A DNA stretch of 63,009 nt from positions 1 through 63,009 of the forward strand of contig JBBQQR010000012.1 in NCBI GenBank assembly GCA_038215615.1. Reading direction: 5' to 3'. This DNA comes from Vulcanimicrobiales bacterium (GTDB taxonomy: Bacteria > Vulcanimicrobiota > Vulcanimicrobiia > Vulcanimicrobiales > Vulcanimicrobiaceae). Shown here piece by piece: positions 2 through 13,229 of this stretch (its first letter is position 1; every line of letters starts with the position of its first letter). The notes under the pieces were generated by a model. That model saw only the letters and a program-made list of their open reading frames with translations. It made no database searches and was not told where the DNA came from. The position numbers and the translations under genes are program-made.

Positions 2-1276
2 CCGCGCGTCCACACTGGCCGGCGTATTGCCGCGCAGCCTCACCGCCACTTCGCGAACGGGCAGCATGCGCAGCTGGGGAGCATAGGTGCGGCTTACCGG
101 CGCCCGCTCACCATGACACTGACTCAAGACCGGCGCGCCGTAAGTAACACGCGATTCCAAAAGATGGGCCGGGCGCACGTGCGCCTGTTGCGCCTGGATA
201 TCTCCAACCGCCTGCAAGCGTTCGAACGCGATCGCGAGCGTTTGCGGATCGGGCTGCGTTCCTGAAAAAAGCGTGGTGAAGGCGCCGCACTCTTCCAGGC
301 GCAGCGCTTGCAGCCGCAGCCCCGTCACCGGCGCGTCAAAAATTAGGCCTTCGATTTTGGCCCGCAAAATATCGAGCACGACGCGCGGATCGGCGGTCGG
401 CTGCGCGAAGCCGGCGTCCAATTCGCGCAGATCGCCGTTTTCGCATTCGAACGTCGTGCGCAAAAATGCCGCGGCTTTTCCCGCGCGGCTCAAATCGCTG
501 CAGATGCGCTCGGCCAAAACGCGCAGCGCGAAATAGACTTGCTCTTCTTGTGCCACGCTGCCCTCGCCGAACGCGGCAGCTTCGATCTGCAGCGCGTAGG
601 GACGCGGACGAAACGGCGCCGGATCGGTCCCGCGCGCGCATTCGTGCCACCGTGCCGCCCGCGCGCCGAAACGGCGGACGAACGGACCGTGCGGCAAGCG
701 CGCCAGTTCGCCCAGCGTCGCAATGCCGAGCAAGTGCAGCCGTTCGACGATGGCCGGTTCCACGTCGAGCACTTCCAGCGGTAGAGGCGCGAGCAACGCA
801 GCTGCTTCGTCCGCGCTGCAGACGCAGCCGTCGCGCACGTAGGTTGCCGCGCGGGCCGCGAACTTGTTGGGGCCGGCTGCGGCGCGCACCGGCAGATCGA
901 AACGCTCCAAGAGTGCATGCGCGTGCGCAATCCAGTCGCCCGCCGTGCCGTCGCAACCACGCATCTCCACATATGCCGTGCCTTCGCCTGTATCGTCCAC
1001 CAGCGGCGAAAGCGCGTCGAGCTCATCGAGCATGTCTTCCCACACGGTATGCGCGTACCGAGCGTCATGAACGAGCACGCGCGCTCCGCCGGCCGCCGCG
1101 CAGGCTTGCAAAACCGTCTGTCCGCGACGCGCGCCCAGCGCGTGCGCGCGATCGTCAACCTCGAGCACGCGCCCGCGATCGGCTTTGTCGGCCAGAATGA
1201 CGACGTCGTCAAAACTCTCGATGCCTCGGCGGGCCACCGCCAGCCGGAACGCGGGAACGTGTACGCATAACAGCAT
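2..1276 (-). CDS. imuB: ImuB-like inactive Y-family DNA polymerase, 3' end runs off the window
   Basis: Not in the ORF track. Manual translation from ATG at 1276 (TGATG overlap with imuA stop): MLLCVHVPAFRLAVARR...LDALSPLVDDTGEGTAYVEMRG...GPNKFAARAA...LHLLGIATLGELARLP. The frame is open to the window edge. Confidence 0.85.
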   Translation of the reverse strand, partial: MLLCVHVPAFRLAVARRGIESFDDVVILADKADRGRVLEVDDRAHALGARRGQTVLQACAAAGGARVLVHDARYAHTVWEDMLDELDALSPLVDDTGEGTAYVEMRGCDGTAGDWIAHAHALLERFDLPVRAAAGPNKFAARAATYVRDGCVCSADEAAALLAPLPLEVLDVEPAIVERLHLLGIATLGELARLPHGPFVRRFGARAARWHECARGTDPAPFRPRPYALQIEAAAFGEGSVAQEEQVYFALRVLAERICSDLSRAGKAAAFLRTTFECENGDLRELDAGFAQPTADPRVVLDILRAKIEGLIFDAPVTGLRLQALRLEECGAFTTLFSGTQPDPQTLAIAFERLQAVGDIQAQQAHVRPAHLLESRVTYGAPVLSQCHGERAPVSRTYAPQLRMLPVREVAVRLRGNTPASVDAR

Positions 1277-1938
1277 CAGGCGATCCGCAAGTGCACGACC
1301 GCGCCGAGAGCGCTGCGGCGATGCTTGAAGACCTGCGTGCAGACTTCGTAGCCGGCCAGTTCGCGCAACACGCCGCTGCCTTCGGTCCAAAAGATGCGAT
1401 CGATCGCGCACCGCACGCGCGTCGACGCGAAATATCCCAACTCCGTGCTCGCTTGTCCTAACGTCAACAGCAGCGCGTCGGATTTTTTCGCAAGTGCGCC
1501 GAGCCGGGACCAGACGGTGCCGCGCACGTGTACGGCCGGGAGCGTCACCAGCGAGAAAGCACGCGAGCGCAGCAAGATATCGGCACAGCGAGCGGACGCC
1601 AGCGGAGAGTTTGCACAGACGAGCAGCAGCCGGTCGAGAACGACCCCCGCGCGTTCCAAATCGGGAGGATAGAGCGTGCCGTCGTGAATCGCAGCTGCCA
1701 AACCGCAACGGGTCGCACTCGCCAGCGCCGCGGCTACTATTGCGGTCCGGCCGGAACCGGTACCCCCCTCGAGGGTCGCGATGCTTCCGCGGATGAAGCC
1801 GCCGGCCAGCGCGCGATCCAGTTCTGCAAAGCCGCTCGAGACCGGGTCCCCCGCAGACTCTACGATGCGCCCCGCGGCGTGCGCCTCCAAGCCGGCTTTT
1901 AGGCTCGCGAACGTGTCGGCAACCGCGGCAGAGACCAT
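1276..1938 (-). CDS. imuA: ImuA-like RecA/RadA-fold mutasome protein
   Basis: SGFAELDRALAGGFIRGS and P-loop-like GGTGSGRT; directly upstream of imuB; SOS box in promoter. Confidence 0.85.
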   Translation of the reverse strand: MVSAAVADTFASLKAGLEAHAAGRIVESAGDPVSSGFAELDRALAGGFIRGSIATLEGGTGSGRTAIVAAALASATRCGLAAAIHDGTLYPPDLERAGVVLDRLLLVCANSPLASARCADILLRSRAFSLVTLPAVHVRGTVWSRLGALAKKSDALLLTLGQASTELGYFASTRVRCAIDRIFWTEGSGVLRELAGYEVCTQVFKHRRSALGAVVHLRIA

Positions 1939-4175: not shown

Positions 4176-5776
4176 CTGCGAAGCTCGATCCGATCAGCGT
4201 CGAAGTGATCAAGAACTCCCTGATTTACGCGAGTGAAGAGATGGGCATTGCCGTGCGCAATAGCGCTTATTCTCCCAATATCAAAGAACGGCTCGATCAT
4301 TCGTGCGCGCTTTTCGACTGCGATGCCCGGCTGATTGCGCAGGCCGAGCATATTCCGGTTCACCTCGGTTCGCTTCCGTGGGGCTTGCGGCGTACTCTGG
4401 AAGTTATCGTCCGCGAAGAAGGTGCGTGCGCAGAAGGCGAGATGTGGGTCGTCAACGATCCGTATATTTCCGGCACGCACCTGAACGACGTCACGGTGAT
4501 CCGTCCGATCTTCTTCCGCGGGAAGCTCGCCGGCTATGCGGCCAACAAGGCCCATCATACCGACGTCGGCGGAATGGTTCCGGGATCGATGTCGGCCGAT
4601 GCGCCCGACCTCTTTGCCGAAGGACTCGTCGTGCCGCCGATGCGGCTGGTCGCAAGAGACCGGAACGTGCCTGCGACGATAGCGTTGTTTCGCGCGAACT
4701 CGCGGACGCCTGACGCGCGCAGCGGCGATCTGCGCGCGCAAACCGCGGGCAATTATACGGGCGAGCGCCGTTTTCAAGAACTCTGCGAACGGTACGGCAC
4801 GCAGACGCTGCGCGCGGCGATCGACACGATTCTCGACCAAAGCGAAACGCGCATGCGCGCCGCGTTGGCCCGGATGCGCGAAGGCACGTTCGAAAGCGAA
4901 GACGTCCTGGAAGATCGCGACGGCCGCCCCACAATTCGGATTGCGCTGCGGCTCACGCTGAACGGTGGAAGCGCGCACTTCGATTATACGGGCACGGCGC
5001 CGCAGCTGCCGTTTCCCATGAACGCGGTGTACGGCGTAACTCTTTCGGGCGTCTATTACGCTTTGCGCGCCGTTACCGACCCGTCGATTCCCATGAACGA
5101 AGGCTGCTTCCGGCCGGTCTTCGTCGACGTTCCGGAAGGCACTCTGCTCAATCCCGTTCGCCCAGCGGCGGTCGGCGGGGGCAACGTCGAAACGAGTACG
5201 CGCAACGCGGACGTCGTGCTCGGCGCGCTCGCGCAAGCCGCGCCCGATCGCGTGCCCGCGCAAAGCGGCGGCACGATGACCAACGTCATGATCGGCGGAA
5301 CTCGGGCCGACGGCACGCCGTGGGCTTTCTACGAAACGAACGGCTGCGGCATGGGTGCGCGTCCCGGGATGGACGGACTGGACGCCATTCAATGCCATAT
5401 GACCAATACGCTAAACACGCCCATCGAAGCGATCGAACGCGACTATCCGCTGCGCGTTACGCGCTATGAAATTGTCGAAGGAACGGGCGGCGGCGGCACA
5501 TATAGGGGAGGCAACGGCCTCGTTCGCGCCTTGCGGCTGACCGAGGGACGCGCGCGCGTTTCGCTGCTTTCCGAGCGGCACGCGGTGCAGCCAAGCGGCG
5601 CCGGCGGAGGAAGCGCCGGAACGCTCGGACGGCACACGCTGGTGCACGCGGATGGAACGGCGGAAACACTCCGGGCAAAAACGACTTTTGAGTTTGAACC
5701 GGAAGAAACGCTGGAAGTGCAAACGCCGGGCGGCGGCGGTTTAGGTGCCGGGGACGTGTCCTCCGCAGAGCGGTAA
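4172..5776 (+). CDS. Hydantoinase B/oxoprolinase subunit
   Basis: ATGA overlap with subunit A; SPNIKERLDHSCA, HIPVHLGS, NDPY.GTHLND, TPGGGG motifs. Confidence 0.92.
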   Translation: MTAKLDPISVEVIKNSLIYASEEMGIAVRNSAYSPNIKERLDHSCALFDCDARLIAQAEHIPVHLGSLPWGLRRTLEVIVREEGACAEGEMWVVNDPYISGTHLNDVTVIRPIFFRGKLAGYAANKAHHTDVGGMVPGSMSADAPDLFAEGLVVPPMRLVARDRNVPATIALFRANSRTPDARSGDLRAQTAGNYTGERRFQELCERYGTQTLRAAIDTILDQSETRMRAALARMREGTFESEDVLEDRDGRPTIRIALRLTLNGGSAHFDYTGTAPQLPFPMNAVYGVTLSGVYYALRAVTDPSIPMNEGCFRPVFVDVPEGTLLNPVRPAAVGGGNVETSTRNADVVLGALAQAAPDRVPAQSGGTMTNVMIGGTRADGTPWAFYETNGCGMGARPGMDGLDAIQCHMTNTLNTPIEAIERDYPLRVTRYEIVEGTGGGGTYRGGNGLVRALRLTEGRARVSLLSERHAVQPSGAGGGSAGTLGRHTLVHADGTAETLRAKTTFEFEPEETLEVQTPGGGGLGAGDVSSAER

Positions 5777-6526
5777 CGCTTTCACGACGAGATCCGCTGC
5801 GCGGCCTTCGCTCGACTGCAGCATCTGCTGATACTGCCCGATCGCTTGATCGAAAACGTCGAGCGGGTTATGTCCGACGACAAATCCCGTGTCCTGCAGC
5901 GCCGGATCCGCCGCTTGCTGGGGAGTATTGCGAACGCCGGCATTGAGAATCTCAGATGGCGGCGGCGTTGGTGCGGCGCCCGCCGATTGCGCGCTCTGCG
6001 GACCATTCCCGCCCTGCGCTTTGGGGATTTCGCGCGTCTGCGTAAGTTTCAGCGCCTCGCTTCCGGCGGCTTGCATCTGACCCAATTGCTCGGTATCCAC
6101 GAAACCGCTGATCACGTCGAGCGCGCGTTTCTGCGCCGCCACAACCTGTAGCAAGTTTGCGCGTATTTCGAGCAGTTGCCGGTCCGCGTCCGATATTGCG
6201 CGCTTCGGAAAGACGAACGGATCGTTGAGCAGTTTCTCGATCGCAGCCGTGTTCTGCACGAGCGGCGTTATCAGGCGCTCGACGCGCGACACCTGAAGAT
6301 CTTTTGAGATACTGCCGGTCGCTGTCGCCTTCACATATCCACGCAGCAGCGGGCGGCTTTGCGCGATCGTGTGGTCGTTTTGCAACACTTTGCCGATCGC
6401 CGGCCCAATGTTTTGCCGCAAGCCCGTGCAGAGCGGCGAAACGTGCAAGTGCTCAATCGTCTTGAGGGGCGTGGCAGCCGGCGCCGGAGTGGCGAGCGAG
6501 ACCGCCATCGCGAGCGTGATCCACAT
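5741..6526 (-). CDS. Secreted hypothetical protein
   Basis: Signal-peptide-like N-terminus followed by ATPAPAATP; last gene of the blaI-led run. Confidence 0.7.
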   Translation of the reverse strand: MWITLAMAVSLATPAPAATPLKTIEHLHVSPLCTGLRQNIGPAIGKVLQNDHTIAQSRPLLRGYVKATATGSISKDLQVSRVERLITPLVQNTAAIEKLLNDPFVFPKRAISDADRQLLEIRANLLQVVAAQKRALDVISGFVDTEQLGQMQAAGSEALKLTQTREIPKAQGGNGPQSAQSAGAAPTPPPSEILNAGVRNTPQQAADPALQDTGFVVGHNPLDVFDQAIGQYQQMLQSSEGRAADLVVKALPLCGGHVPGT

Positions 6527-6550
6527 GCCCCTTTTTACGCCGCGAGCGGC

Positions 6551-8617
6551 TTACGTTCCCTTATCGGCGCCGAAATAGTGCACAACTTTGAAGATCAGCT
6601 GCGGTGAGGTCGAGAATTTGCTGGCATCGCCGTATACGAGATAGATCTCGTTGTGCTCCAGCAGTTTGTGATAGGCAAACGAAAGATTCCAGCCGCTCGA
6701 AAACGACGGCGTCTGACCGAGGTCGAGCACCGGAGAGAAGCCGATGATCCGGCGGACGCCGACCGCGAACGATTCGTTCGAACCGCTTTGGTACGAGTAG
6801 CTCAGGCGCTCAAGCCACTGTCGGTACGTTTTTCCGTTGTCGAGATGTTGCGCCGTATCGTTGGCTTGGAGCGTGACGGACGCCCGGTTTCCCACGCGGA
6901 TGACGATGCTGCGTCCCCACGATATGATGCGGCCGGGGCCAAATCTGCCGGTGTCGTATTCAATGTAGGTGGGATAGGCGGTCGTGCTGCGCCATCCGAA
7001 GCCGCGCGAGTTGATCGTGATCGGCGCGAAGACGCCGTTGCCGAGCAGCAGGTAGGACGACCCCGTGTTGGCCCAAAGTTCGATGAAGTTTTTCGTCAGG
7101 AGATCGAAGCCAAGGTTGTTGTCGGTCTGGTTGAGTGCGCCGGTCGTGCCGTGGTAGCGGTCGATCGAGCCGTAGATCTGGATCCACTTGAACGCGCTTT
7201 TGCCTGAATAGTTCCACTGCTTCCACAGATTGACGTTATAGCCCGCGATTCCCGGATGCGAGACGATGCCGTCAAATGGGTTGTAGTACGTGCCGATTTT
7301 TCGCATGCTGAAACCCGCGAAAAAGTTCGGCGGCGTATACCCGATTCCAAAGTCGGAGCGCTTGTTGTCGTTGTCATTGAGTACGGCGGTTCCGCGGTCT
7401 TCTCCCCAATTGTAATAGGCGAACAGATCCGAATGATTGTTGTAGGTGATGCCATCGGTGACGGTAACATCGCGGAACCCTGGCATGTTGACGGCTACCC
7501 GCTGAGTCGCGATCTGCACCCGGCGGTTCGGAGTTTTGTAATAGAACGATTGGGCGCTGTCGTTACGACCGACGCCAACGGCGTCGAAGCCGGCAAAATT
7601 GAAACGTCCTTCTTTGCCCTCGATCGCATAGCCATCGCGCGGCGTCGGAATGGCCGGCGTGTAGAGCTCTTGGATTCCGGGGCATCCGGTGCACGAGAAC
7701 GGGTTGTAGAAGTTCGCTCCCTGCGTGAAGAACGGTCGGACTTCGCTGAAAAACCGCCTGAACGCGGTCGGCGAAATGCTCTGCTGATCTTTTTCCACGT
7801 TCGAGTAATCCGGATGCAGGGTCGCGACGAACGTCGTGCTGGAATCGAGCGGAATCGAGAGATCGGCGCCGGCCCGCGACGTGCTGCCGCCAATCGAGCG
7901 TGAGGCCAGCGATCCCAGGCCGTAGACCGCGATGCGGCTCTTGGGACGCGTGCTTCCGACGGTCGGAATTCCCGCCAGCCGGCCCGCAAAGGTCACGTCG
8001 TTGAAGTTGGTGTCGCTGGCGGCTCCGCGCCAGACCAAGTTTTCGCGAGTTGCCGGGGACAGCCGAATGAATTGCACCAGCCAAACCTTGCCCGCGCCGC
8101 GCATTCCCGCGAGCGGAATCTTCATCGTCACCGTGTAGCCGCCCGCGCTTATTTTTCCGGCGGACACCCAATTTGGTTCGTAGGAGTTGTTTTCCGTCGA
8201 AAACTGATAGTGCGTGCCGATCGGGGTTGAGGTGAACTTGTACATGAAACCTTGGTCCCCACCCGGCCAAAGATCGACTTGCACTTCATCGTCGGTATCC
8301 ATGCCGACGCCGTTGGTGTGTTCTTGCGCGCTAATCGGCGCCGTTGTTTTCACTTCGAATGCGACGTAGAGAAACTTGCCGTCCGTCAGCAGGTACGCGT
8401 TCGTCGGCTGTTTCGCGGGCTGGTGGAAATTCATATCGTAGCCAAGGGTCGCCGTGGCGGCTTTTTGCCACAGCGGATCGCTCAGCGTACCGTCCATGGC
8501 GGGAGCCGAAGCAATCACGGGAACCGTAAGCATGTCCTGCGCGGGAACCGGTTCGATCGCGGCAGCCGTTCCCGTTGCAAACGCGGCCAGGATGGCCGCA
8601 GCGAGCAACACTTTCAT
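6551..8617 (-). CDS. Exported protein, CBM9-like sugar-binding domain plus probable beta-barrel (DUF5916-like)
   Basis: Signal peptide MKVLLAAAILAAFA; APAMDGTLSDPLW and LYVAF (CBM9-like); PDYSNVEKD and FFSEVRPFFTQG (DUF5916-like); aromatic beta-strand-rich C-terminus. Confidence 0.7.
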   Translation of the reverse strand: MKVLLAAAILAAFATGTAAAIEPVPAQDMLTVPVIASAPAMDGTLSDPLWQKAATATLGYDMNFHQPAKQPTNAYLLTDGKFLYVAFEVKTTAPISAQEHTNGVGMDTDDEVQVDLWPGGDQGFMYKFTSTPIGTHYQFSTENNSYEPNWVSAGKISAGGYTVTMKIPLAGMRGAGKVWLVQFIRLSPATRENLVWRGAASDTNFNDVTFAGRLAGIPTVGSTRPKSRIAVYGLGSLASRSIGGSTSRAGADLSIPLDSSTTFVATLHPDYSNVEKDQQSISPTAFRRFFSEVRPFFTQGANFYNPFSCTGCPGIQELYTPAIPTPRDGYAIEGKEGRFNFAGFDAVGVGRNDSAQSFYYKTPNRRVQIATQRVAVNMPGFRDVTVTDGITYNNHSDLFAYYNWGEDRGTAVLNDNDNKRSDFGIGYTPPNFFAGFSMRKIGTYYNPFDGIVSHPGIAGYNVNLWKQWNYSGKSAFKWIQIYGSIDRYHGTTGALNQTDNNLGFDLLTKNFIELWANTGSSYLLLGNGVFAPITINSRGFGWRSTTAYPTYIEYDTGRFGPGRIISWGRSIVIRVGNRASVTLQANDTAQHLDNGKTYRQWLERLSYSYQSGSNESFAVGVRRIIGFSPVLDLGQTPSFSSGWNLSFAYHKLLEHNEIYLVYGDASKFSTSPQLIFKVVHYFGADKGT

Positions 8618-8618
8618 A

Positions 8619-9449
8619 TCAAGGTCCTTTCGCACCGGTAAGATTAGCGTGCGCGACGTCGCGCAGCGTTGCCGCATCAAGCGGGCTGCAGGTACGCTTG
8701 TTGTCATAGTCCGATCGGTCGCCCGGATCGCAGAGCAACACTCCCCGCAGATCCGCTCCGCGTAAATCCGCGCCGCGCAGGTCCGTGCAAAAGACCCGCG
8801 TGCCGATAGTATAGTTTCCGTCGTTCCAATTGGTCTCGTGCCCACAGAGCGCGGCTCCGCTTAAATCCGCGTTTTGAAGATTGACGCGTGAAAGGTTGTC
8901 CGCCAGCAGCGAGGCCCCGCGCAAGCTCGCGCCGCTCAGGTTCGAATCCGAAAAGTTGCTGCCGGCAGTGTGAATGCCTTGCAAATTCTTGCCGTGCAAA
9001 TCCACATTGCGCAGATTGCAGCCGGCGCAATTCGAAAGGAGCGCGTGAATCTGACTATCGGGCAAACCGTTCAAAAAACTGCTCGAAAGATTAACGCCGG
9101 CCAGTTTGACTCCGCCCAACCGTGCGCCGTCGAGTTTAGCATTGCGCAGGTCGCAGCCCGCCAACTTGGCGTCGCGAAGATCCGCACCGCGCAAGTCCGC
9201 TCCGCGAAAACTCACGCCCGCCAACTTCGCGCCCGAGAAGTTGGCGTCGCGCAGATTTGCGCCGCTCAAATCGACGCCCACCCAGGAAACGTCGCGCAGG
9301 TCGCGTCCGTGCAGATCGTCGCCGCGCAAGTCACATCCCACGCAAGAGTGCGGAAGACCCAGCTGCGCTCGAGCTGCGCTCGAGCTGCCGGCAATCAGGG
9401 CGATCGCAATGACGGTGGCTGCGATGAGGGTTAGAAGGTGAGTTTTCAT
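8619..9449 (-). CDS. Secreted pentapeptide-repeat protein
   Basis: Signal peptide, many A(D/N)LxG repeats, SCVGCD and NCAGCN motifs; GGAGAG RBS upstream of ATG 9449. Confidence 0.88.
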   Translation of the reverse strand: MKTHLLTLIAATVIAIALIAGSSSAARAQLGLPHSCVGCDLRGDDLHGRDLRDVSWVGVDLSGANLRDANFSGAKLAGVSFRGADLRGADLRDAKLAGCDLRNAKLDGARLGGVKLAGVNLSSSFLNGLPDSQIHALLSNCAGCNLRNVDLHGKNLQGIHTAGSNFSDSNLSGASLRGASLLADNLSRVNLQNADLSGAALCGHETNWNDGNYTIGTRVFCTDLRGADLRGADLRGVLLCDPGDRSDYDNKRTCSPLDAATLRDVAHANLTGAKGP

Positions 9450-9522
9450 ACATCTCTCCAAAGGTCCGCAAGGAACTAAGCCTGCGCGCCCAGGCGTTCG
9501 AGAGGTTCCGGTTCGGGTCTAG

Positions 9523-11667
9523 CTACCGCATGATGTTGATTCTGCTGCCCGTGATTCGGGTGTGGCTCAAGTCCACGTTCCGAAGATCGACTCCAGTGAA
9601 ATCGCAGCCGTTAAAAGAAGCGCCGTCGAGATGCGCGCCGTCGAACTTGGCATTTTTGAAGTCGATGCCGTTGAACGAAGAGTTGCGCATATCGGCGCCC
9701 CGGAGATCCGCCGAGCTGAGATCGTCACCCGACACGGCGATACCGCGGAGATCCTGTCCGCGCAGGTTTGCGCCCCGGAAATCGCAGCCTTGGCAGTCGG
9801 CCAAGATCGCGCGCGCCTGCGAGGGCGTCAGTTTGGCAATCTCGATGTCGCAGCCGTTGATGTGCGCGCCCGCAAAGTTCGCGCCGGTCAAATCGGCGCG
9901 GCGCATGTCGCAGCCCTGCAGGTTTGCGTTTGCGAAGTTGACATCACGCAGATTCGCTCCCGAGAAATCTACGCCGCTCAGATTGGAAAACGAGAAATTC
10001 GCGCCGTGCAGATCCGCGCCGGAGAAATCCGAGCCGGTCAGCGATACGCGCGAGAGGTTGCGTCCGGCCCACTGCACGCGGCTGAAGTCGCAGCCGGTGC
10101 AAGACCCGTTGAGATCGGCGGCGCGCTTGAGGGACGCACGGTATCCGTACGGCACCTTGTAGCGCATAGCCGGAATATTGACGTTCACTGCGGGTACGTG
10201 CACGTCGATGGCCGGCACGTGAACGTCCGTCGCGGGCATGTGCACGTTGACTTCGGGAACGTTAACGTTGACGGCCGGAACCTGCACGTCGACCATACCG
10301 TTGTGTACCGTCGTGCGCTTGAAGATCGTCGTCGTGGTGTGTTTCTTCGACACGGTCGAAGAGCGAGGGCCTGGAGTCGCGACGGCGACGATCGCCGACG
10401 GAAAGGCTTGCGGCGCAGGCAGATATTTGTCGCGGTAGACGACAGTCGTCTTGGCCGCGCTTGCCGCTTTGACGGGTACGGCTGCACGGGCCGCCGTCTG
10501 CGAAGCGGCCGCAACCAAGCGCGTGACGTGAGCGGAGTGCGCGCCGGCCGCCAGCGTGAATGCGAATGACGGCGCGACGTTTTGCGCGACGAAGAACATG
10601 ACGATCAGGGCCGCGGCGACCGCGCCGGCCGGCCCGAATGAAACGCTCGTGCGCACGTTGCGGCCGGCCCGAAGCAGTCTCTCCACACGCACCGAGAGTC
10701 CGCGGCGCGTAAGAAACACGCCCGGAGCTGCGAGCGCGCGATGGGGCCACGCCGTCACTTCGGCCATGTGCGTAAGACAGGTTGCATACGGACGCACGTC
10801 ACCGGTTTGATGCAGCACCCAATCGTCGCACGCGACTTCGCGTTCCAAATCGAGTTGCTGCGCCATGAAAAGCACGGCCGGATTGAAGAAAAAGATGGCT
10901 TGGATGATGCGCTGCAGGCCGTTCGTCCAGTCGTCAGCGCGACGGAGATGCGCCAGTTCGTGCAGCGTGATTTGATCGATCTCTTTTTCCGAGAGCGTTT
11001 CGAGCAGATGTCTTGGAATCAATACCATCGAGTCGAACAGACCGACTGCAACGGGAACTTCGATATGCTCGGAGACGCACAGCCGCACGTCGCGCGTCCC
11101 CTTCTCAGCGAGAGTCCAACGGGCGAGCTGTTCGCGATAGTCCAGCGACAACGGGAGGGCATCCCGTTTGAGCGCCTCGAGTTTGAAGAGATTGAAAGCT
11201 AACCGCATTAAAAGGAAGAGCGAGGCTGCGACCCAGACTGCGAAGATGCCCAGCGCCAACGCCTGGGGCAGCGCAAAACGCAAACGGCTTGGAAAGCTCG
11301 GCGCGAGCACGGCAGGCTGCGAGGCACTAGCGGCAATATCCGATTGGCTCGCAGTGTTCACCAGTTTGGAGAGCGCCGCTTTAGGCGAGTGCGTTACCGC
11401 CGTCGTTTGCGGCGCCGCTGTCACGTTGTGAAATGCCGGCGCGCTCTGCACGCTGACTTGCGGAATGGCGGTGACCACCGGAACGACCAGCGCCGCAATC
11501 AGCGCGATGCACCACGCGACGTAGCGCGTCGTCGCGTTGATGTTCGGCAGATAGTTTAAGAGCGCCCAAACCGCGAGCGCCAGAATCGCGCCTTCCCATA
11601 AACTGTTGAAAAGCGTCGCGGCGGCGATCCGCGCGGCCGGTTCGGCAAAAGCAGCGAGCGCGTGCAC
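9523..11667 (-). CDS. BlaR1/MecR1-like M56 metallopeptidase with C-terminal pentapeptide-repeat domain
   Basis: N-terminal TM helices, LHELAH zinc motif, REVACDD, TM segment, Ala/Thr/Pro linker, then pentapeptide repeats with SCTGCD and DCQGCD. Confidence 0.9.
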   Translation of the reverse strand: MHALAAFAEPAARIAAATLFNSLWEGAILALAVWALLNYLPNINATTRYVAWCIALIAALVVPVVTAIPQVSVQSAPAFHNVTAAPQTTAVTHSPKAALSKLVNTASQSDIAASASQPAVLAPSFPSRLRFALPQALALGIFAVWVAASLFLLMRLAFNLFKLEALKRDALPLSLDYREQLARWTLAEKGTRDVRLCVSEHIEVPVAVGLFDSMVLIPRHLLETLSEKEIDQITLHELAHLRRADDWTNGLQRIIQAIFFFNPAVLFMAQQLDLEREVACDDWVLHQTGDVRPYATCLTHMAEVTAWPHRALAAPGVFLTRRGLSVRVERLLRAGRNVRTSVSFGPAGAVAAALIVMFFVAQNVAPSFAFTLAAGAHSAHVTRLVAAASQTAARAAVPVKAASAAKTTVVYRDKYLPAPQAFPSAIVAVATPGPRSSTVSKKHTTTTIFKRTTVHNGMVDVQVPAVNVNVPEVNVHMPATDVHVPAIDVHVPAVNVNIPAMRYKVPYGYRASLKRAADLNGSCTGCDFSRVQWAGRNLSRVSLTGSDFSGADLHGANFSFSNLSGVDFSGANLRDVNFANANLQGCDMRRADLTGANFAGAHINGCDIEIAKLTPSQARAILADCQGCDFRGANLRGQDLRGIAVSGDDLSSADLRGADMRNSSFNGIDFKNAKFDGAHLDGASFNGCDFTGVDLRNVDLSHTRITGSRINIMR
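10165..10296 (-). repeat. In-frame 7-residue tandem repeat (VPAVNVN-like, about 6 copies)
   Basis: VPAVNVN VPEVNVH MPATDVH VPAIDVH VPAVNVN IPAM within the M56 protein. Confidence 0.8.
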
Positions 11668-12050
11668 TACGGACCTTCCTCGTACTGTTCGATGAGCGTC
11701 TTGAGCCGTTGAAGCTCCGCTTCACCCGGTCGTTCGTTCTCGATCAAACGTAGCGCCAGTTCGGCGGATTTGTTTCCAAAGAATCGGTTGAGCAGCAAGC
11801 CGACCGCGGACTGCGCCGCTTCTTCGCGTTCGACCAGCGGTGAATAGACGTACGCCCGGCCCTCTTCTTCGTGGCTCACGTAGCCTTTTTGCTCCAGAAT
11901 CCTCATCGTGGTCAGCACGGTGTTGTATGCGATCGGCGGCGGCGGCAGCGCTTGGGTTACGTCGGCAATGGTGGCGCTGCGCTTTTGCCACAGCACTTCC
12001 ATCAAGCGCAACTCGGCCTCGGTCAGAGTCGGGGATTTCTTGCGAGCCAC
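11667..12050 (-). CDS. BlaI/MecI/CopY family repressor
   Basis: LTEAELRLMEVLW, YNTVLTTMRILEQKG, GRAYVYSP; stop overlaps the M56 start. Confidence 0.93.
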   Translation of the reverse strand: MARKKSPTLTEAELRLMEVLWQKRSATIADVTQALPPPPIAYNTVLTTMRILEQKGYVSHEEEGRAYVYSPLVEREEAAQSAVGLLLNRFFGNKSAELALRLIENERPGEAELQRLKTLIEQYEEGP

Positions 12051-12067
12051 GGCTACCTCCAGTAGAA

Positions 12068-12125
12068 ACTAATTCCTTAGTAGACTATAAAGTCTCCGGC
12101 GCCAGTTGTCAACTATGGAATTAAT
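12068..12125 (-). promoter_or_regulatory. blaI promoter flanked by two putative BlaI operators
   Basis: Minus strand TTGACA (12107-12112)-17 nt-TATAGT (12084-12089). Palindrome ACTAA-TTCC-TTAGT at 12068-12081 and an inverted near-copy ACTATGGAATTAAT at 12112-12125. Confidence 0.75.
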
Positions 12126-12191
12126 ACACCGCAAGGGTGGCGGGCCCCGTTCGGAGAGAGGACGAATAGCGCCGATTCGTTACCCCTATCA

Positions 12192-13229
12192 ATGGAGACT
12201 CAAATGCGGCGTCCCTTCGTCTTTCGCAGCGCCGGGTTAGTCCCGGCCGCCCTGGCCCTGCTGGCCTCAACTGCCTGTTCCGGCGGTACGGTGATTGGCA
12301 GCGGACCTTTGCCCACTCCCGCCCCGGTCGTGCCGCACGTATCGGCGGAGTTCACCGTTCCCACAGCCGCGAGCGCGCCGCAGGGAATCACCCTCGGTTT
12401 CGACGGCTTCATCTATTTCGTAGAAACGGCCGGCAACAAAATCGTCAAAATGACGACCGGCGGCGTCTTTGTCGAAACAGCCGTGCCCACCGCAAACGCC
12501 GGCCCGTTTGGGATTGCCGGCATGCCCGACACGAGCGTCTGGTTCACCGAAAATACGGCCAACAAGATCGGCACCCAGACAGGCACGACGGCTGCTACCG
12601 AGTATCCGCTGCCGACTGCGAACGCCGGGCCGACGTATATCACACGCGGACCTGACGGCGCACTCTGGTTCAGCGAAACCAACGCCAACAAACTGGGCCG
12701 CATCGATCTGAGCGGTGCCATTACCGAATTTCCCGTCCCGACGGCGAACGCCGGACTTGCGGGACTCGTCGGTTACAGCGACGGCGGAATCTGGATCGCG
12801 GAGAGCAACGCCTCGGCCATCGTGCGCTTCGACGTCACGGCCAAGACGTTCGGCACCCCGCGTCCGACGCTGACCGCAAGCGCCGCGCCGACGCAAATCG
12901 TCGTCTGCCCCGATGCTCAGACGTTGTGCTTTACAGAGAACAATGCTGCGAAGCTCGGACAGATCACGCCGGCGGGCGTCGTCACCGAACACTCACTTGC
13001 ACCGGCGACCTCCGCGTTTGGCTTGATTAACGGCGCCGACTTCAACCTCTACTTCACCGACCGCGCACAGAACAAGATCGGCCAAATTTCCGGCATTTCG
13101 TTCGGCGTCACCGAATTTGCGATTCCAACCGCCGGTTCTCAAGCGTCGTTCCTTTCGCTCGGACCGGACGCTCAAGTGTATTTCACGGAAACCGCAACGA
13201 ACAAAGTTGCCCGCCTGACCTACTTCTAG
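12192..13229 (+). CDS. Vgb (virginiamycin B lyase)-like beta-propeller lipoprotein
   Basis: Lipobox-like STAC; repeated GPDGALWFSETNANKLGRI-type blades. Confidence 0.85.
   Translation: METQMRRPFVFRSAGLVPAALALLASTACSGGTVIGSGPLPTPAPVVPHVSAEFTVPTAASAPQGITLGFDGFIYFVETAGNKIVKMTTGGVFVETAVPTANAGPFGIAGMPDTSVWFTENTANKIGTQTGTTAATEYPLPTANAGPTYITRGPDGALWFSETNANKLGRIDLSGAITEFPVPTANAGLAGLVGYSDGGIWIAESNASAIVRFDVTAKTFGTPRPTLTASAAPTQIVVCPDAQTLCFTENNAAKLGQITPAGVVTEHSLAPATSAFGLINGADFNLYFTDRAQNKIGQISGISFGVTEFAIPTAGSQASFLSLGPDAQVYFTETATNKVARLTYF

Follow-up and report, generated by a model that had tools for sequence, protein, structure and literature searches.

An envelope-surveillance circuit is likely to be encoded on the minus strand of the window, the whole 63,009-nt stretch of DNA that was analysed. 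In this circuit a BlaI-type repressor and an M56 membrane protease carrying a pentapeptide-repeat (PRP) sensor would control both a secreted twin of that sensor and an outer-membrane barrel. Surveillance of the envelope is proposed because likely repressor sites precede secreted copies of the PRP rod and the outer-membrane barrel. Taken jointly, the proteolytic switch and its regulon are highly probable, and it is the regulon and its layout that are new here.

The unit consists of five minus-strand ORFs, namely blaI, an M56::PRP gene, the secreted PRP twin, a CBM9/DUF5916 barrel gene and a hypothetical gene. In 5' to 3' gene order, blaI and the M56 gene overlap by 1 nt and are followed by gaps of 73, 1 and 24 nt, confirming an earlier note that had described five co-oriented, closely spaced genes. 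A neighbourhood comparison across genomes showed that the unit is kept throughout Vulcanimicrobiota and that the downstream genes are conserved with blaI, as that note's operon implied. All M56+PRP members with a taxon name belong to Vulcanimicrobiota/Eremiobacterota, the majority of members carrying no taxon. The host is a soil bacterium. A scan of the five genes and of genes flanking them turned up neither a beta-lactamase nor a PBP gene. The Vgb-like lipoprotein gene at 12192-13229, which is divergent from blaI, was rejected as a 'blaZ equivalent': the genome has four loci of this kind, the divergent placement next to PRP-type blaI is limited to the genus, and the stretches aligned to the His-bearing, catalytic motifs of Vgb are devoid of His. 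The system is not described in the literature searched, in keeping with the earlier statement that no characterised example was known, and the nine architectures reported to have 100 or more entries do not include M56+PRP (PMC13492132).

The repressor gene (11667..12050, minus strand) encodes a 127 aa protein that matches PF03965 with 106 bits, and the adjoining gene (9523-11667, minus strand) matches PF05569 (126 bits) and PF00805 (160 bits). PF05569 spans residues 24-328 (10684..11598, minus strand), a zinc-protease and membrane domain that keeps its HELAH motif at 236, as had been noticed. Residues H236/E237/H240, D245, E277/D281, F318, R327 and R330 are invariant in 101/101 M56 homologues and correspond to the HEXXH, EXXXD, P1' Phe and Arg294 of BlaR1, and the gluzincin motifs HEXXH and EXXXD are both intact. 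The fold is matched by Foldseek to the BlaR1 structures 8EXP-8EXT, with a TMt of 0.60 for 8EXR. From these motifs the M56 membrane zinc protease is likely to cut the neighbouring BlaI, as the transmembrane proteolysis system suggested earlier would require. Against this, alignment with 1SD6 and 1SD4 puts Arg-Leu in this BlaI where MecI/BlaI have their Asn-Phe cut site, and the Phe is described as almost invariant (PMC9834060); sister repressors have Asn-Leu or similar at this position. The M56 protein has no Pfam match to a penicillin-binding (transpeptidase) domain and scores 86 bits with blaR1_generic against a cut-off of 400, with the N-terminal part alone matched. The significance of this had been overstated, as only about 6% of M56 proteins have such a domain, some 94% of M56/BlaR-like proteins being without one, and their ligands are termed unpredictable (PMC13492132).

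The blaI promoter is of the sigma70 type (TTGACA-17-TATAGT, 12084..12112, minus strand, 11/12 consensus matches) and is flanked by two predicted operators. O1, a YTAR-N4-YTAR palindrome (12111..12126, 19.2 bits), overlaps the start of the -35 box, and O2 (12067..12082, 23.1 bits), the best site in the genome, lies directly after the -10 box. A site at the O1 position and the TTGAC are both kept in 22/22 aligned PRP-type promoters, and O2 is conserved too. The BlaI-type repressor is likely to bind both palindromes, giving the arrangement of palindromic operators over an autoregulated promoter that belongs to the BlaIR family. Genome-wide, six sites exceed 15 bits, five of them at blaI or barrel promoters. 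A predicted operator also lies upstream of 27/54 further close-family barrel genes, against 0.19 expected from block shuffles and a background rate of 3/2340 ORFs, and two precede each of the five intact unlinked twins (5/5), which are spread over four genomes. The operator scan hence supports the twin as a member of the predicted regulon, in agreement with the earlier note, which had overlooked both the operators and those regulon members that lie elsewhere, unlinked to the cassette. The genomes compared are kin, so the locus counts given here are non-independent events. The predicted regulon contains no metal or redox gene. A terminator scan gave sites no commoner than in shuffles.

Hydropathy, the AF2 model, the 8EXR match and charge bias (mean K+R among homologues of 7.0 before TM4 vs 0.3 after) predict four transmembrane helices with the protease inside and the C-terminal domain outside. 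The last helix (10561..10644, minus strand), defined by hydropathy, the AF2 model and homologue alignment, ends in P-S-F-A, which we take to resemble a signal peptidase I site; in 101/101 homologues P366 and A369 are unchanged and position -3 is S/T/V. It is followed by an Ala/Pro/Val-rich linker with P-x-V-x-V repeats (10108..10554, minus strand), predicted to be disordered (pLDDT <50 over most of residues 382-517) and about 150 aa long (81-178 aa in 101 homologues). Only then does the sensor PRP beta-helix begin (9523..10107, minus strand, pLDDT 95-98), with two modules opened by CxGC motifs at residues 523 and 625. The earlier note was correct about the repeats and both motifs, but not in placing them directly after the last helix. 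C625/C628 are present in 101/101 homologues and C523/C526 in 95/101, and seven sensor-domain cysteines are conserved in 95-101 of 101. The helix has no C-terminal cysteine cap, and 0/101 homologue tails contain a cysteine. The sensor is predicted to face the periplasm on a long tether as an open-ended, uncapped rod. Its outside location, and not the cytoplasmic one that would have spoken against the original proposal, is argued from the charge bias, the BlaR1-like fold with an outside C-terminus and the presence of Omp85 and VKOR in the genome, where a search for DsbB found none.

The twin (8619..9449, minus strand, ATG at 9449) was defined by profile, hydropathy and alignment. It is a 276 aa protein with a hydrophobic N-terminus, CxGC motifs at 36 and 141, and nine cysteines, four of which are invariant in a C-terminal cap (8622-8861, minus strand). 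It had been regarded as a secreted version of the sensor's two-CxGC architecture; a paralogue it is, but the added four-Cys cap makes it more than a copy. The two share 37.5% identity over 200 aa, including an internal helix and the second CxGC, and the pairing exceeds generic repeat similarity, since four other PRP ORFs examined in the genome have no CxxC. Twins and sensors form separate clades with similar branching, one long-branch twin aside, and repeated recent duplication of the twin from the sensor was rejected on this ground. The comparison shows sensor and twin to be co-inherited. By hand tally, a twin follows the sensor at 18/30 PRP loci and a fused cap is present at 3 more; 8 loci have neither, nor a cap elsewhere in their genomes. 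Each of 16 new loci (16/16) has a sensor-type PRP upstream of its twin. A sensor with a fused twin-type cap is seen in 5/285 M56-type proteins, 3 of the 5 at loci without a separate twin, and in P0256 a twin-type domain replaces the sensor domain altogether (190 vs 174 bits). A homologue search with the twin as query returned 7 proteins, generic repeats having filled the candidate list. A complex prediction pairing the twin with residues 516-714 of the sensor PRP scored 0.00, was run without controls and is weighed neither way. The twin does not group with the gyrase-protecting Qnr/MfpA proteins, its best scores being 50-54 bits vs cut-offs of 240-500, and it has a signal peptide.

The fourth gene (6551..8617, minus strand, ATG at 8617) encodes a predicted outer-membrane protein that matches PF06452 (26.9 bits) and PF19313 (27.8 bits), both above cut-off, and contains the CTGC noted earlier, at 309. 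Its AF2 model (pLDDT 87, pTM 0.86) has a CBM9-like beta-sandwich and a barrel of about 24 strands, with structural matches to CBM9 1I82 (Z 19.1) and to the FyuA and Mtr barrels (Z about 16); a sequence search found no match to solved CBM9s. With both Pfam families and a sandwich-plus-barrel fold it fits the DUF5916/CBM9 proteins, for which control by BlaI-type operators is a prediction made here; no paper in the literature searched names DUF5916. The last gene (5741..6526, minus strand) encodes a hypothetical protein with two invariant cysteines and no match in Pfam or PDB profile searches, an ESM Atlas lead at 0.76 being the sole lead. Its own signal peptide falls below the hydropathy threshold, a correction to the secretion claimed for it, and those of relatives are clearer. 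It occurs in 25/36 genomes of one family (f1) vs 0/24 others and was rejected as a core member, with an operator before 0/14 unlinked copies; it is probably a secreted accessory member.

This genome has a second cassette with the same gene order, a barrel of the same family and operators nearly identical to those described above; the PRP is replaced there by a helical repeat that is free of cysteine. A twin is present at 23/23 helical-repeat loci (hand tally), and TonB_C domains occur on some sister sensors. The idea that every M56 sensor has a twin was rejected, as a matching neighbour was seen at 0/24 other M56 loci (TonB_C, HEAT, HEAT+DUF4097 or a short tail), some of them cut by contig ends.

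Compared with the S. aureus BlaI/BlaR1 and MecI/MecR1 systems (PMC9834060; 8EXP-8EXT, 1SD4, 1SD6), the cassette has the same repressor family, the M56 HEXXH/EXXXD motifs, equivalents of the autocleavage-loop Phe and Arg, four transmembrane helices with a C-terminus predicted outside, predicted palindromic operators at the promoter and a signal-peptidase-like site after the last helix. Unlike them, it lacks a penicillin-binding domain and a beta-lactamase/PBP gene, carries a PRP on a long linker, has the Arg-Leu cut site and a diderm host, includes an outer-membrane barrel in its predicted regulon, and has YTAR-N4-YTAR as its predicted operator rather than TACA-N2-TGTA, an operator that the available text of PMC7253601 gives for CopR/CopY. 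A BlaI with an M56-type protease free of a beta-lactam domain is also found in CenIR of C. difficile (PMC13492132), PvmSR of P. aeruginosa (10.64898/2026.08.03.742534) and, from the available text, PetRP of Synechocystis (10.1101/2020.07.31.226407). Unlike the PRP sensor, the outer parts of these three are disordered or absent and, in the text available, are not described as paralogues of a target. CenIR has an envelope role, its most induced target being an adjacent exported protein (PMC13492132).

How the twin takes part is a more tentative matter, and the reading we prefer is given slightly less than an even chance: by analogy with YjbI (PerA) of Caulobacter crescentus, the twin may be a sentinel that restrains the protease and is removed under envelope stress. 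The twin would dock on the sensor's open end; once it was degraded, titrated or exported, the protease would cut BlaI, and production of the sensor, the twin and the CBM9/DUF5916 barrel would go on until the twin pool was restored. According to the available text of PMC12864828, YjbI is a secreted PRP with Cys pairs flanking its beta-helix, as in the twin, and is an envelope sentinel in a feedback loop controlling outer-membrane barrels: it keeps envelope-stress signalling silent, is broken down when stress occurs, and is induced again by the very system that it represses. The likeness is one of described features, not of alignment, with four cysteines in YjbI vs nine in the twin; moreover, YjbI signals through the two-component systems UzcSR and ChvGI and not an M56 protease, and that text describes no paralogous sensor PRP. 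Exported cyanobacterial PRPs (PMC8145042; 2O6W, 2F3L) also share the Rfr fold, Rfr23 having a Cys39-Cys42 bracket and Rfr32 a signal peptide and a disulfide-stabilised C-terminal cap, but they stand alone, with no assigned function and no protease switch described. Protease motifs, operators, sensor-twin pairing, fused caps, clade structure and the YjbI precedent speak for the sentinel. Telling against it are the eight of 30 PRP loci without twin or fused cap, five of them with an intact sensor, and the additional twins that have operators of their own, which look like dosage-dependent output and not a stoichiometric co-sensor; the sensor domain of P0256 fits simple interchangeability equally well. 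The effector or decoy role proposed earlier may still apply, but the fused forms and YjbI favour a twin inside the sensing loop.

Those same observations suit a second explanation, somewhat unlikely overall, in which sensor and twin independently bind one outside ligand, binding to the sensor sets off BlaI cleavage, and the twin that is then induced sequesters the ligand or shields against it, much as in the BlaZ system, where the BlaR1 sensor resembles the penicillin-binding/beta-lactamase fold. The twin's place in the predicted regulon, its five extra copies, the five intact sensors without a twin and P0256 are all consistent with this. A single ligand-binding fold would not, however, explain why unrelated solenoids, PRP and helical repeat, occur with one barrel family and near-identical operators. 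The cap, moreover, is kept in the twin, absent from split sensors and present in fused ones.

A circuit centred on the barrel is improbable, with the tethered PRP reaching the outer membrane to report barrel assembly, occupancy or imported substrate and the twin serving as barrel cargo or plug. No output is more constant than the barrel: 34/146 barrel matches lie no more than 4 kb from an M56 gene vs about 1 expected, and 15/16 new loci have it beside the twin; the 1-nt gap, the long linker, the TonB_C domains of sister sensors and the likeness to TonB-dependent, Mtr and usher barrels also fit. Yet four PRP loci with a twin lack an adjacent barrel, several with a barrel lack a twin, 27/54 further close-family barrels have no operator, and the fold matches are those of any large barrel, at 5-12% identity.

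It is very unlikely that signal peptidase cuts after the last helix to shed the PRP as a second secreted solenoid, leaving the membrane part to sense via its own loop as in the sensor-less BlaR systems that exist. The conserved P-S-F-A motif could release the whole sensor domain, which also weighs against the preferred model; SpsB sheds the BlaR1 sensor by cutting at G331 (PMC9834060), and G014, G015 and G017 encode sensor and PRP in two different frames. Shedding of BlaR1 is, however, proposed as turnover of unliganded receptor and not as a working state (PMC9834060), the split frames may be decay or sequencing errors, and in the AF2 model residues 367-371 form a paired strand resembling the outer-loop strands, a pairing read from secondary structure alone.

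Least probable of all is a PetR/PetP-like redox or metal switch working through the CxGC motifs: the seven conserved sensor cysteines and, in the available texts, copper sensing by the Synechocystis pair (10.1101/2020.07.31.226407) and loss of YjbI under Zn and Cu stress (PMC12864828) fit it, but the sister repeats, twin and sensor alike, lack cysteine under the same layout, the barrel keeps its CxxC whichever repeat accompanies it, genes for metal or redox functions are missing from the predicted regulon although an RND efflux system does adjoin a separate blaI-like/short-protease pair on C22, and cysteines are dispensable for YjbI turnover (PMC12864828). The CxxC as sensing element, as the earlier note had it, is unlikely because such brackets are known PRP structural features, as in Rfr23 (PMC8145042), and the CxGC motifs are likely to be structural disulfide brackets; the comparison rests on that paper, since a PDB search with the second CxGC module left the motif unaligned to Rfr23.

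More broadly, and as an unlikely generalisation, many non-beta-lactam BlaR proteins may sense the envelope through three parts, with a solenoid that can be exchanged: an open rod on the protease, a co-regulated secreted twin completing the rod like-with-like, and the CBM9/DUF5916 barrel exporting or holding the twin, such that the state of the outer membrane would be read as the amount of free twin. The cassette offers a concrete candidate ligand for BlaR-like sensors, the sensor's own secreted paralogue, along with a regulatory handle on DUF5916 barrels. It would also provide a second setting, after YjbI, for exported PRPs in envelope control, and its operator and gene set make the circuit testable.

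The cassette consists of five open reading frames, placed as in the earlier note and all on the minus strand: blaI (11667-12050), the M56 sensor (9523-11667), its secreted pentapeptide-repeat (PRP) twin (8619-9449), a barrel (6551-8617) and a last, hypothetical gene (5741-6526), spaced by a 1-nt overlap and then by gaps of 73, 1 and 24 nt. Pfam assigns BlaI, Peptidase_M56 plus Pentapeptide, Pentapeptide, and CBM9_1 plus DUF5916 to genes 1-4, and its search returned no family for the last. The genome totals 2.2 Mb, with the window as contig C12, and the closest named homologues belong to Ca. Rubrimentiphilum and other Vulcanimicrobiota. Omp85 and VKOR are encoded, a search of the genome for DsbB found none, and an outer membrane is described for the phylum's cultured member (PMC9758169). 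A Vgb-like beta-propeller lipoprotein gene, of a kind with four loci in this genome, lies divergent from blaI at 12192-13229 (+), 66 nt from the predicted operator O1, a place that is kept only within the genus. At 336-1938 (-), reading by eye finds a RecA-like (ImuA-type) ORF (1276-1938), followed at the left window end by a frame resembling DNA polymerase Y.

Nine sensor residues, H236, E237, H240, D245, E277, D281, F318, R327 and R330, are invariant in 101 aligned M56 homologues. Their BlaR1 counterparts are the HEXXH and EXXXD motifs, the autocleavage P1' Phe and Arg294 (PMC9834060), F318 and R327/R330 being equated by position and the alignment itself stopping at residue 295. The AF2 model of the sensor (mean pLDDT 76.8, pTM 0.56) joins a membrane-protease region through a disordered linker to a beta-helix modelled with confidence, and its Foldseek matches are PRPs and the BlaR1 structures 8EXP-8EXT. 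The linker closes with P-x-V-x-V heptad-like repeats (10108-10330, minus strand), with similar stretches in distant homologues. Lysines and arginines average 7.0 preceding the last transmembrane helix against 0.3 after it (101 homologues). As basic residues mark the cytoplasmic side of a membrane protein (the positive-inside rule), this charge bias puts the sensor PRP in a predicted extracytoplasmic position, as in BlaR1; the outer loop 69-135, which is basic (6.1 K+R per 65 residues), fits poorly. By alignment, the BlaI cut site is Arg-Leu, not Asn-Phe.

The arrangement was followed through 79 M56 matches from 61 related genomes, of which 76 were fetched after 3 from unpublished genomes were dropped, and one partial locus (G010:C113) was added; the loci were tallied by hand, and, the genomes being kin, the counts mean conservation rather than independent events. 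G030, G048, G059 and G261 enter the automatic tallies only, and no conclusion is drawn from them otherwise. The twin is present at 18 of 30 PRP-type loci, with its C-terminal cap fused to the sensor at 3; 8 have neither, 3 of these with a split or frameshifted sensor, and 1 is at a contig end. A twin is found at 23/23 loci whose sensor carries a helical repeat, two of them broken in pieces, and a matching neighbour at none of the 24 loci of other types (TonB_C, HEAT, short). Barrels lie within 4 kb of 33 of the 76 M56 loci, 31 of these being of the two solenoid types; conversely, 34 of 146 barrel matches (150 of 161 listed, minus 4 from unpublished genomes) lie within 4 kb of an M56 gene, where about 1 is expected. 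In a phylum sample the cap occurs in 104 of 251 genomes, counting the unpublished G261, and is confined to two families; the best-scoring 16 new loci have a sensor-type PRP upstream in every case and a barrel downstream in 15. In the census the downstream genes are kept with blaI, the last gene being confined to family f1 among the genomes examined.

A second cassette on contig C14 (L007:4052-9331) starts with blaI; next come an M56 gene whose product carries an unnamed helical repeat as a fusion, a gene for a secreted protein that also has this repeat, and a barrel gene whose product shares 42% identity with the window barrel. The operator of this cassette has flanks of its own (ACCTAA-N4-TTAGGT). 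The alpha-helical repeat matches no Pfam family, and in the Atlas the look-alikes of this secreted protein fall mostly into Acidobacteriota clusters (0.94, of low recognition value). A further blaI-like gene, the third, stands on contig C22 (L011:129-7104) together with a short M56/M48 protease gene that lacks a sensor part; an RND efflux pair comes next, an MntP-like gene is oriented divergently, and the arrangement is a candidate for a protease switch responding to metal. Elsewhere, an M56 sensor combines a HEAT-like helical array with a DUF4097 (Toastrack) domain (L064:2233-4980, G054:C29).

In a tree of 45 rows, sensors and twins form separate clades with similar branching, one long-branch twin excepted, which points to a single old duplication inherited together. 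Split sensors have their C-terminus no more than about 16 residues from position 700; none of 101 sensor tails contains Cys. The cap that closes the twin holds four invariant Cys. Among 285 M56-type proteins, five carry this cap as part of the sensor: those of G047, G054 and G056, where a separate twin is absent, and P0301 and P0256, known from protein sequences rather than gene neighbourhood, the domain of P0256 being twin-like. These fusions are compatible with a split sensor and also with plain interchangeability. A 102-aa mini-twin (L132:836-1144, G009:C228) keeps only the signal peptide, first CxGC coil and cap end. The reading favoured over its rivals, tentatively, is that the secreted twin would hold the sensor off until envelope stress removes it. 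In Caulobacter, the secreted PRP YjbI, whose beta-helix is flanked by Cys pairs, keeps two envelope-stress systems silent; stress from Zn, Cu, sucrose or acid leads to its destruction, and UzcR induces it again (PMC12864828). That sensor and twin instead share an outside ligand is rather unlikely.

The blaI promoter, TTGACA-17-TATAGT by sequence match, lies at 12112-12084 (-). Relatives' blaI genes have, upstream, a YTAR-N4-YTAR palindrome that overlaps with the -35 box and, in most cases, another after the -10 box; 22/22 aligned PRP-type promoters have two. A matrix derived from 75 blaI upstream regions (120 sites) places six genomic sites above 15 bits: two at the window blaI, two preceding a barrel paralogue on C41 with no blaI nearby, and one each at the second blaI, on C14, and at an unrelated palindrome on C5. 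The C41 gene (L008:3329-5509) is a stand-alone CBM9/DUF5916-family barrel with its predicted BlaI-type operators around the promoter, behind two secreted beta-propeller-like genes. A different palindrome, TACTAGTACACTAGTA (L009:2550-3090 and 4585; G000:C5, near 26090 and 27584), recurs in five genomes of the genus, upstream of the distant-family barrel and close to an ABC-transporter unit, and is probably another regulator's site.

Predicted operators lie no more than about 200 nt from the start codon in 27 of 54 further close-family barrel genes, against 0.19 expected from block shuffles and a background of 3 in 2340 long ORFs of the genome; one of the 27 proved divergent from a blaI, and one of those without an operator is 2.9 kb from an M56 gene. 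Proximal sites above 15 bits were found at 0/26 distant-family barrels and at 0/3 close-family barrels in genomes without detected BlaI. Away from M56 loci the cap has six matches, with two operators at each of the five intact genes and none at the sixth, a 57-codon remnant. In four congeneric genomes the extra twin gene whose 57-codon remnant sits at L258:1477-1650 (G000:C28) is intact and has two operators. A site is likewise present at one unlinked helical-repeat gene, but at 0/14 unlinked copies of the last gene. This distribution suggests a predicted core of sensor, twin and barrel, with the last gene accessory. In G001 (C35:9664-11044) blaI is directly followed by a split last-gene homologue with no M56 gene between, suggesting a deleted cassette.

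The AF2 model of the barrel protein (pLDDT 87, pTM 0.86) has an N-terminal sandwich, matching CBM9 with Z 19.1 over 172 aligned residues (rmsd 2.9), and a barrel resembling, with about 24 strands by hand count from the DSSP list, TonB-dependent, Mtr and usher barrels (Z 13-16, 5-12% identity), comparisons that speak to predicted fold rather than function. A circuit whose input centres on the barrel is improbable. Ectodomain shedding as the input is very improbable. The last transmembrane helix terminates in P-S-F-A, a signal-peptidase-like site with P366 and A369 invariant, and BlaR1 is shed at a similar place (PMC9834060). Least probable of all is redox or metal sensing through CxGC, correctly counted earlier as two motifs each in sensor and secreted protein and one in the barrel. 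These motifs are read as structural, since a Cys39-Cys42 bracket is present in Rfr23 and a cap stabilised by a disulfide in Rfr32 (PMC8145042), the barrel CxxC (C289/C292, nearly invariant) is retained in barrels of both cassette types and the C14 helical-repeat arrays are free of Cys.

A transpeptidase domain occurs in only about 6% of some 15,000 M56 proteins, which span 254 architectures (PMC13492132); 'pentapeptide' is absent from two supplements of that paper. PvmSR and PetRP are further non-beta-lactam BlaIR cases. A literature search on M56 with pentapeptide repeats, DUF5916 and the paired layout, with most subscription journals outside its coverage, found no description. Comparison with the BlaIR family upholds the proposal of a non-beta-lactam switch, and the BlaI/M56 switch with its predicted regulon is well supported on these comparative grounds, with high confidence. 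The unit would work like BlaI/BlaR1 and belong to the BlaIR family, broadly defined, but would not be one of the beta-lactam sensors.
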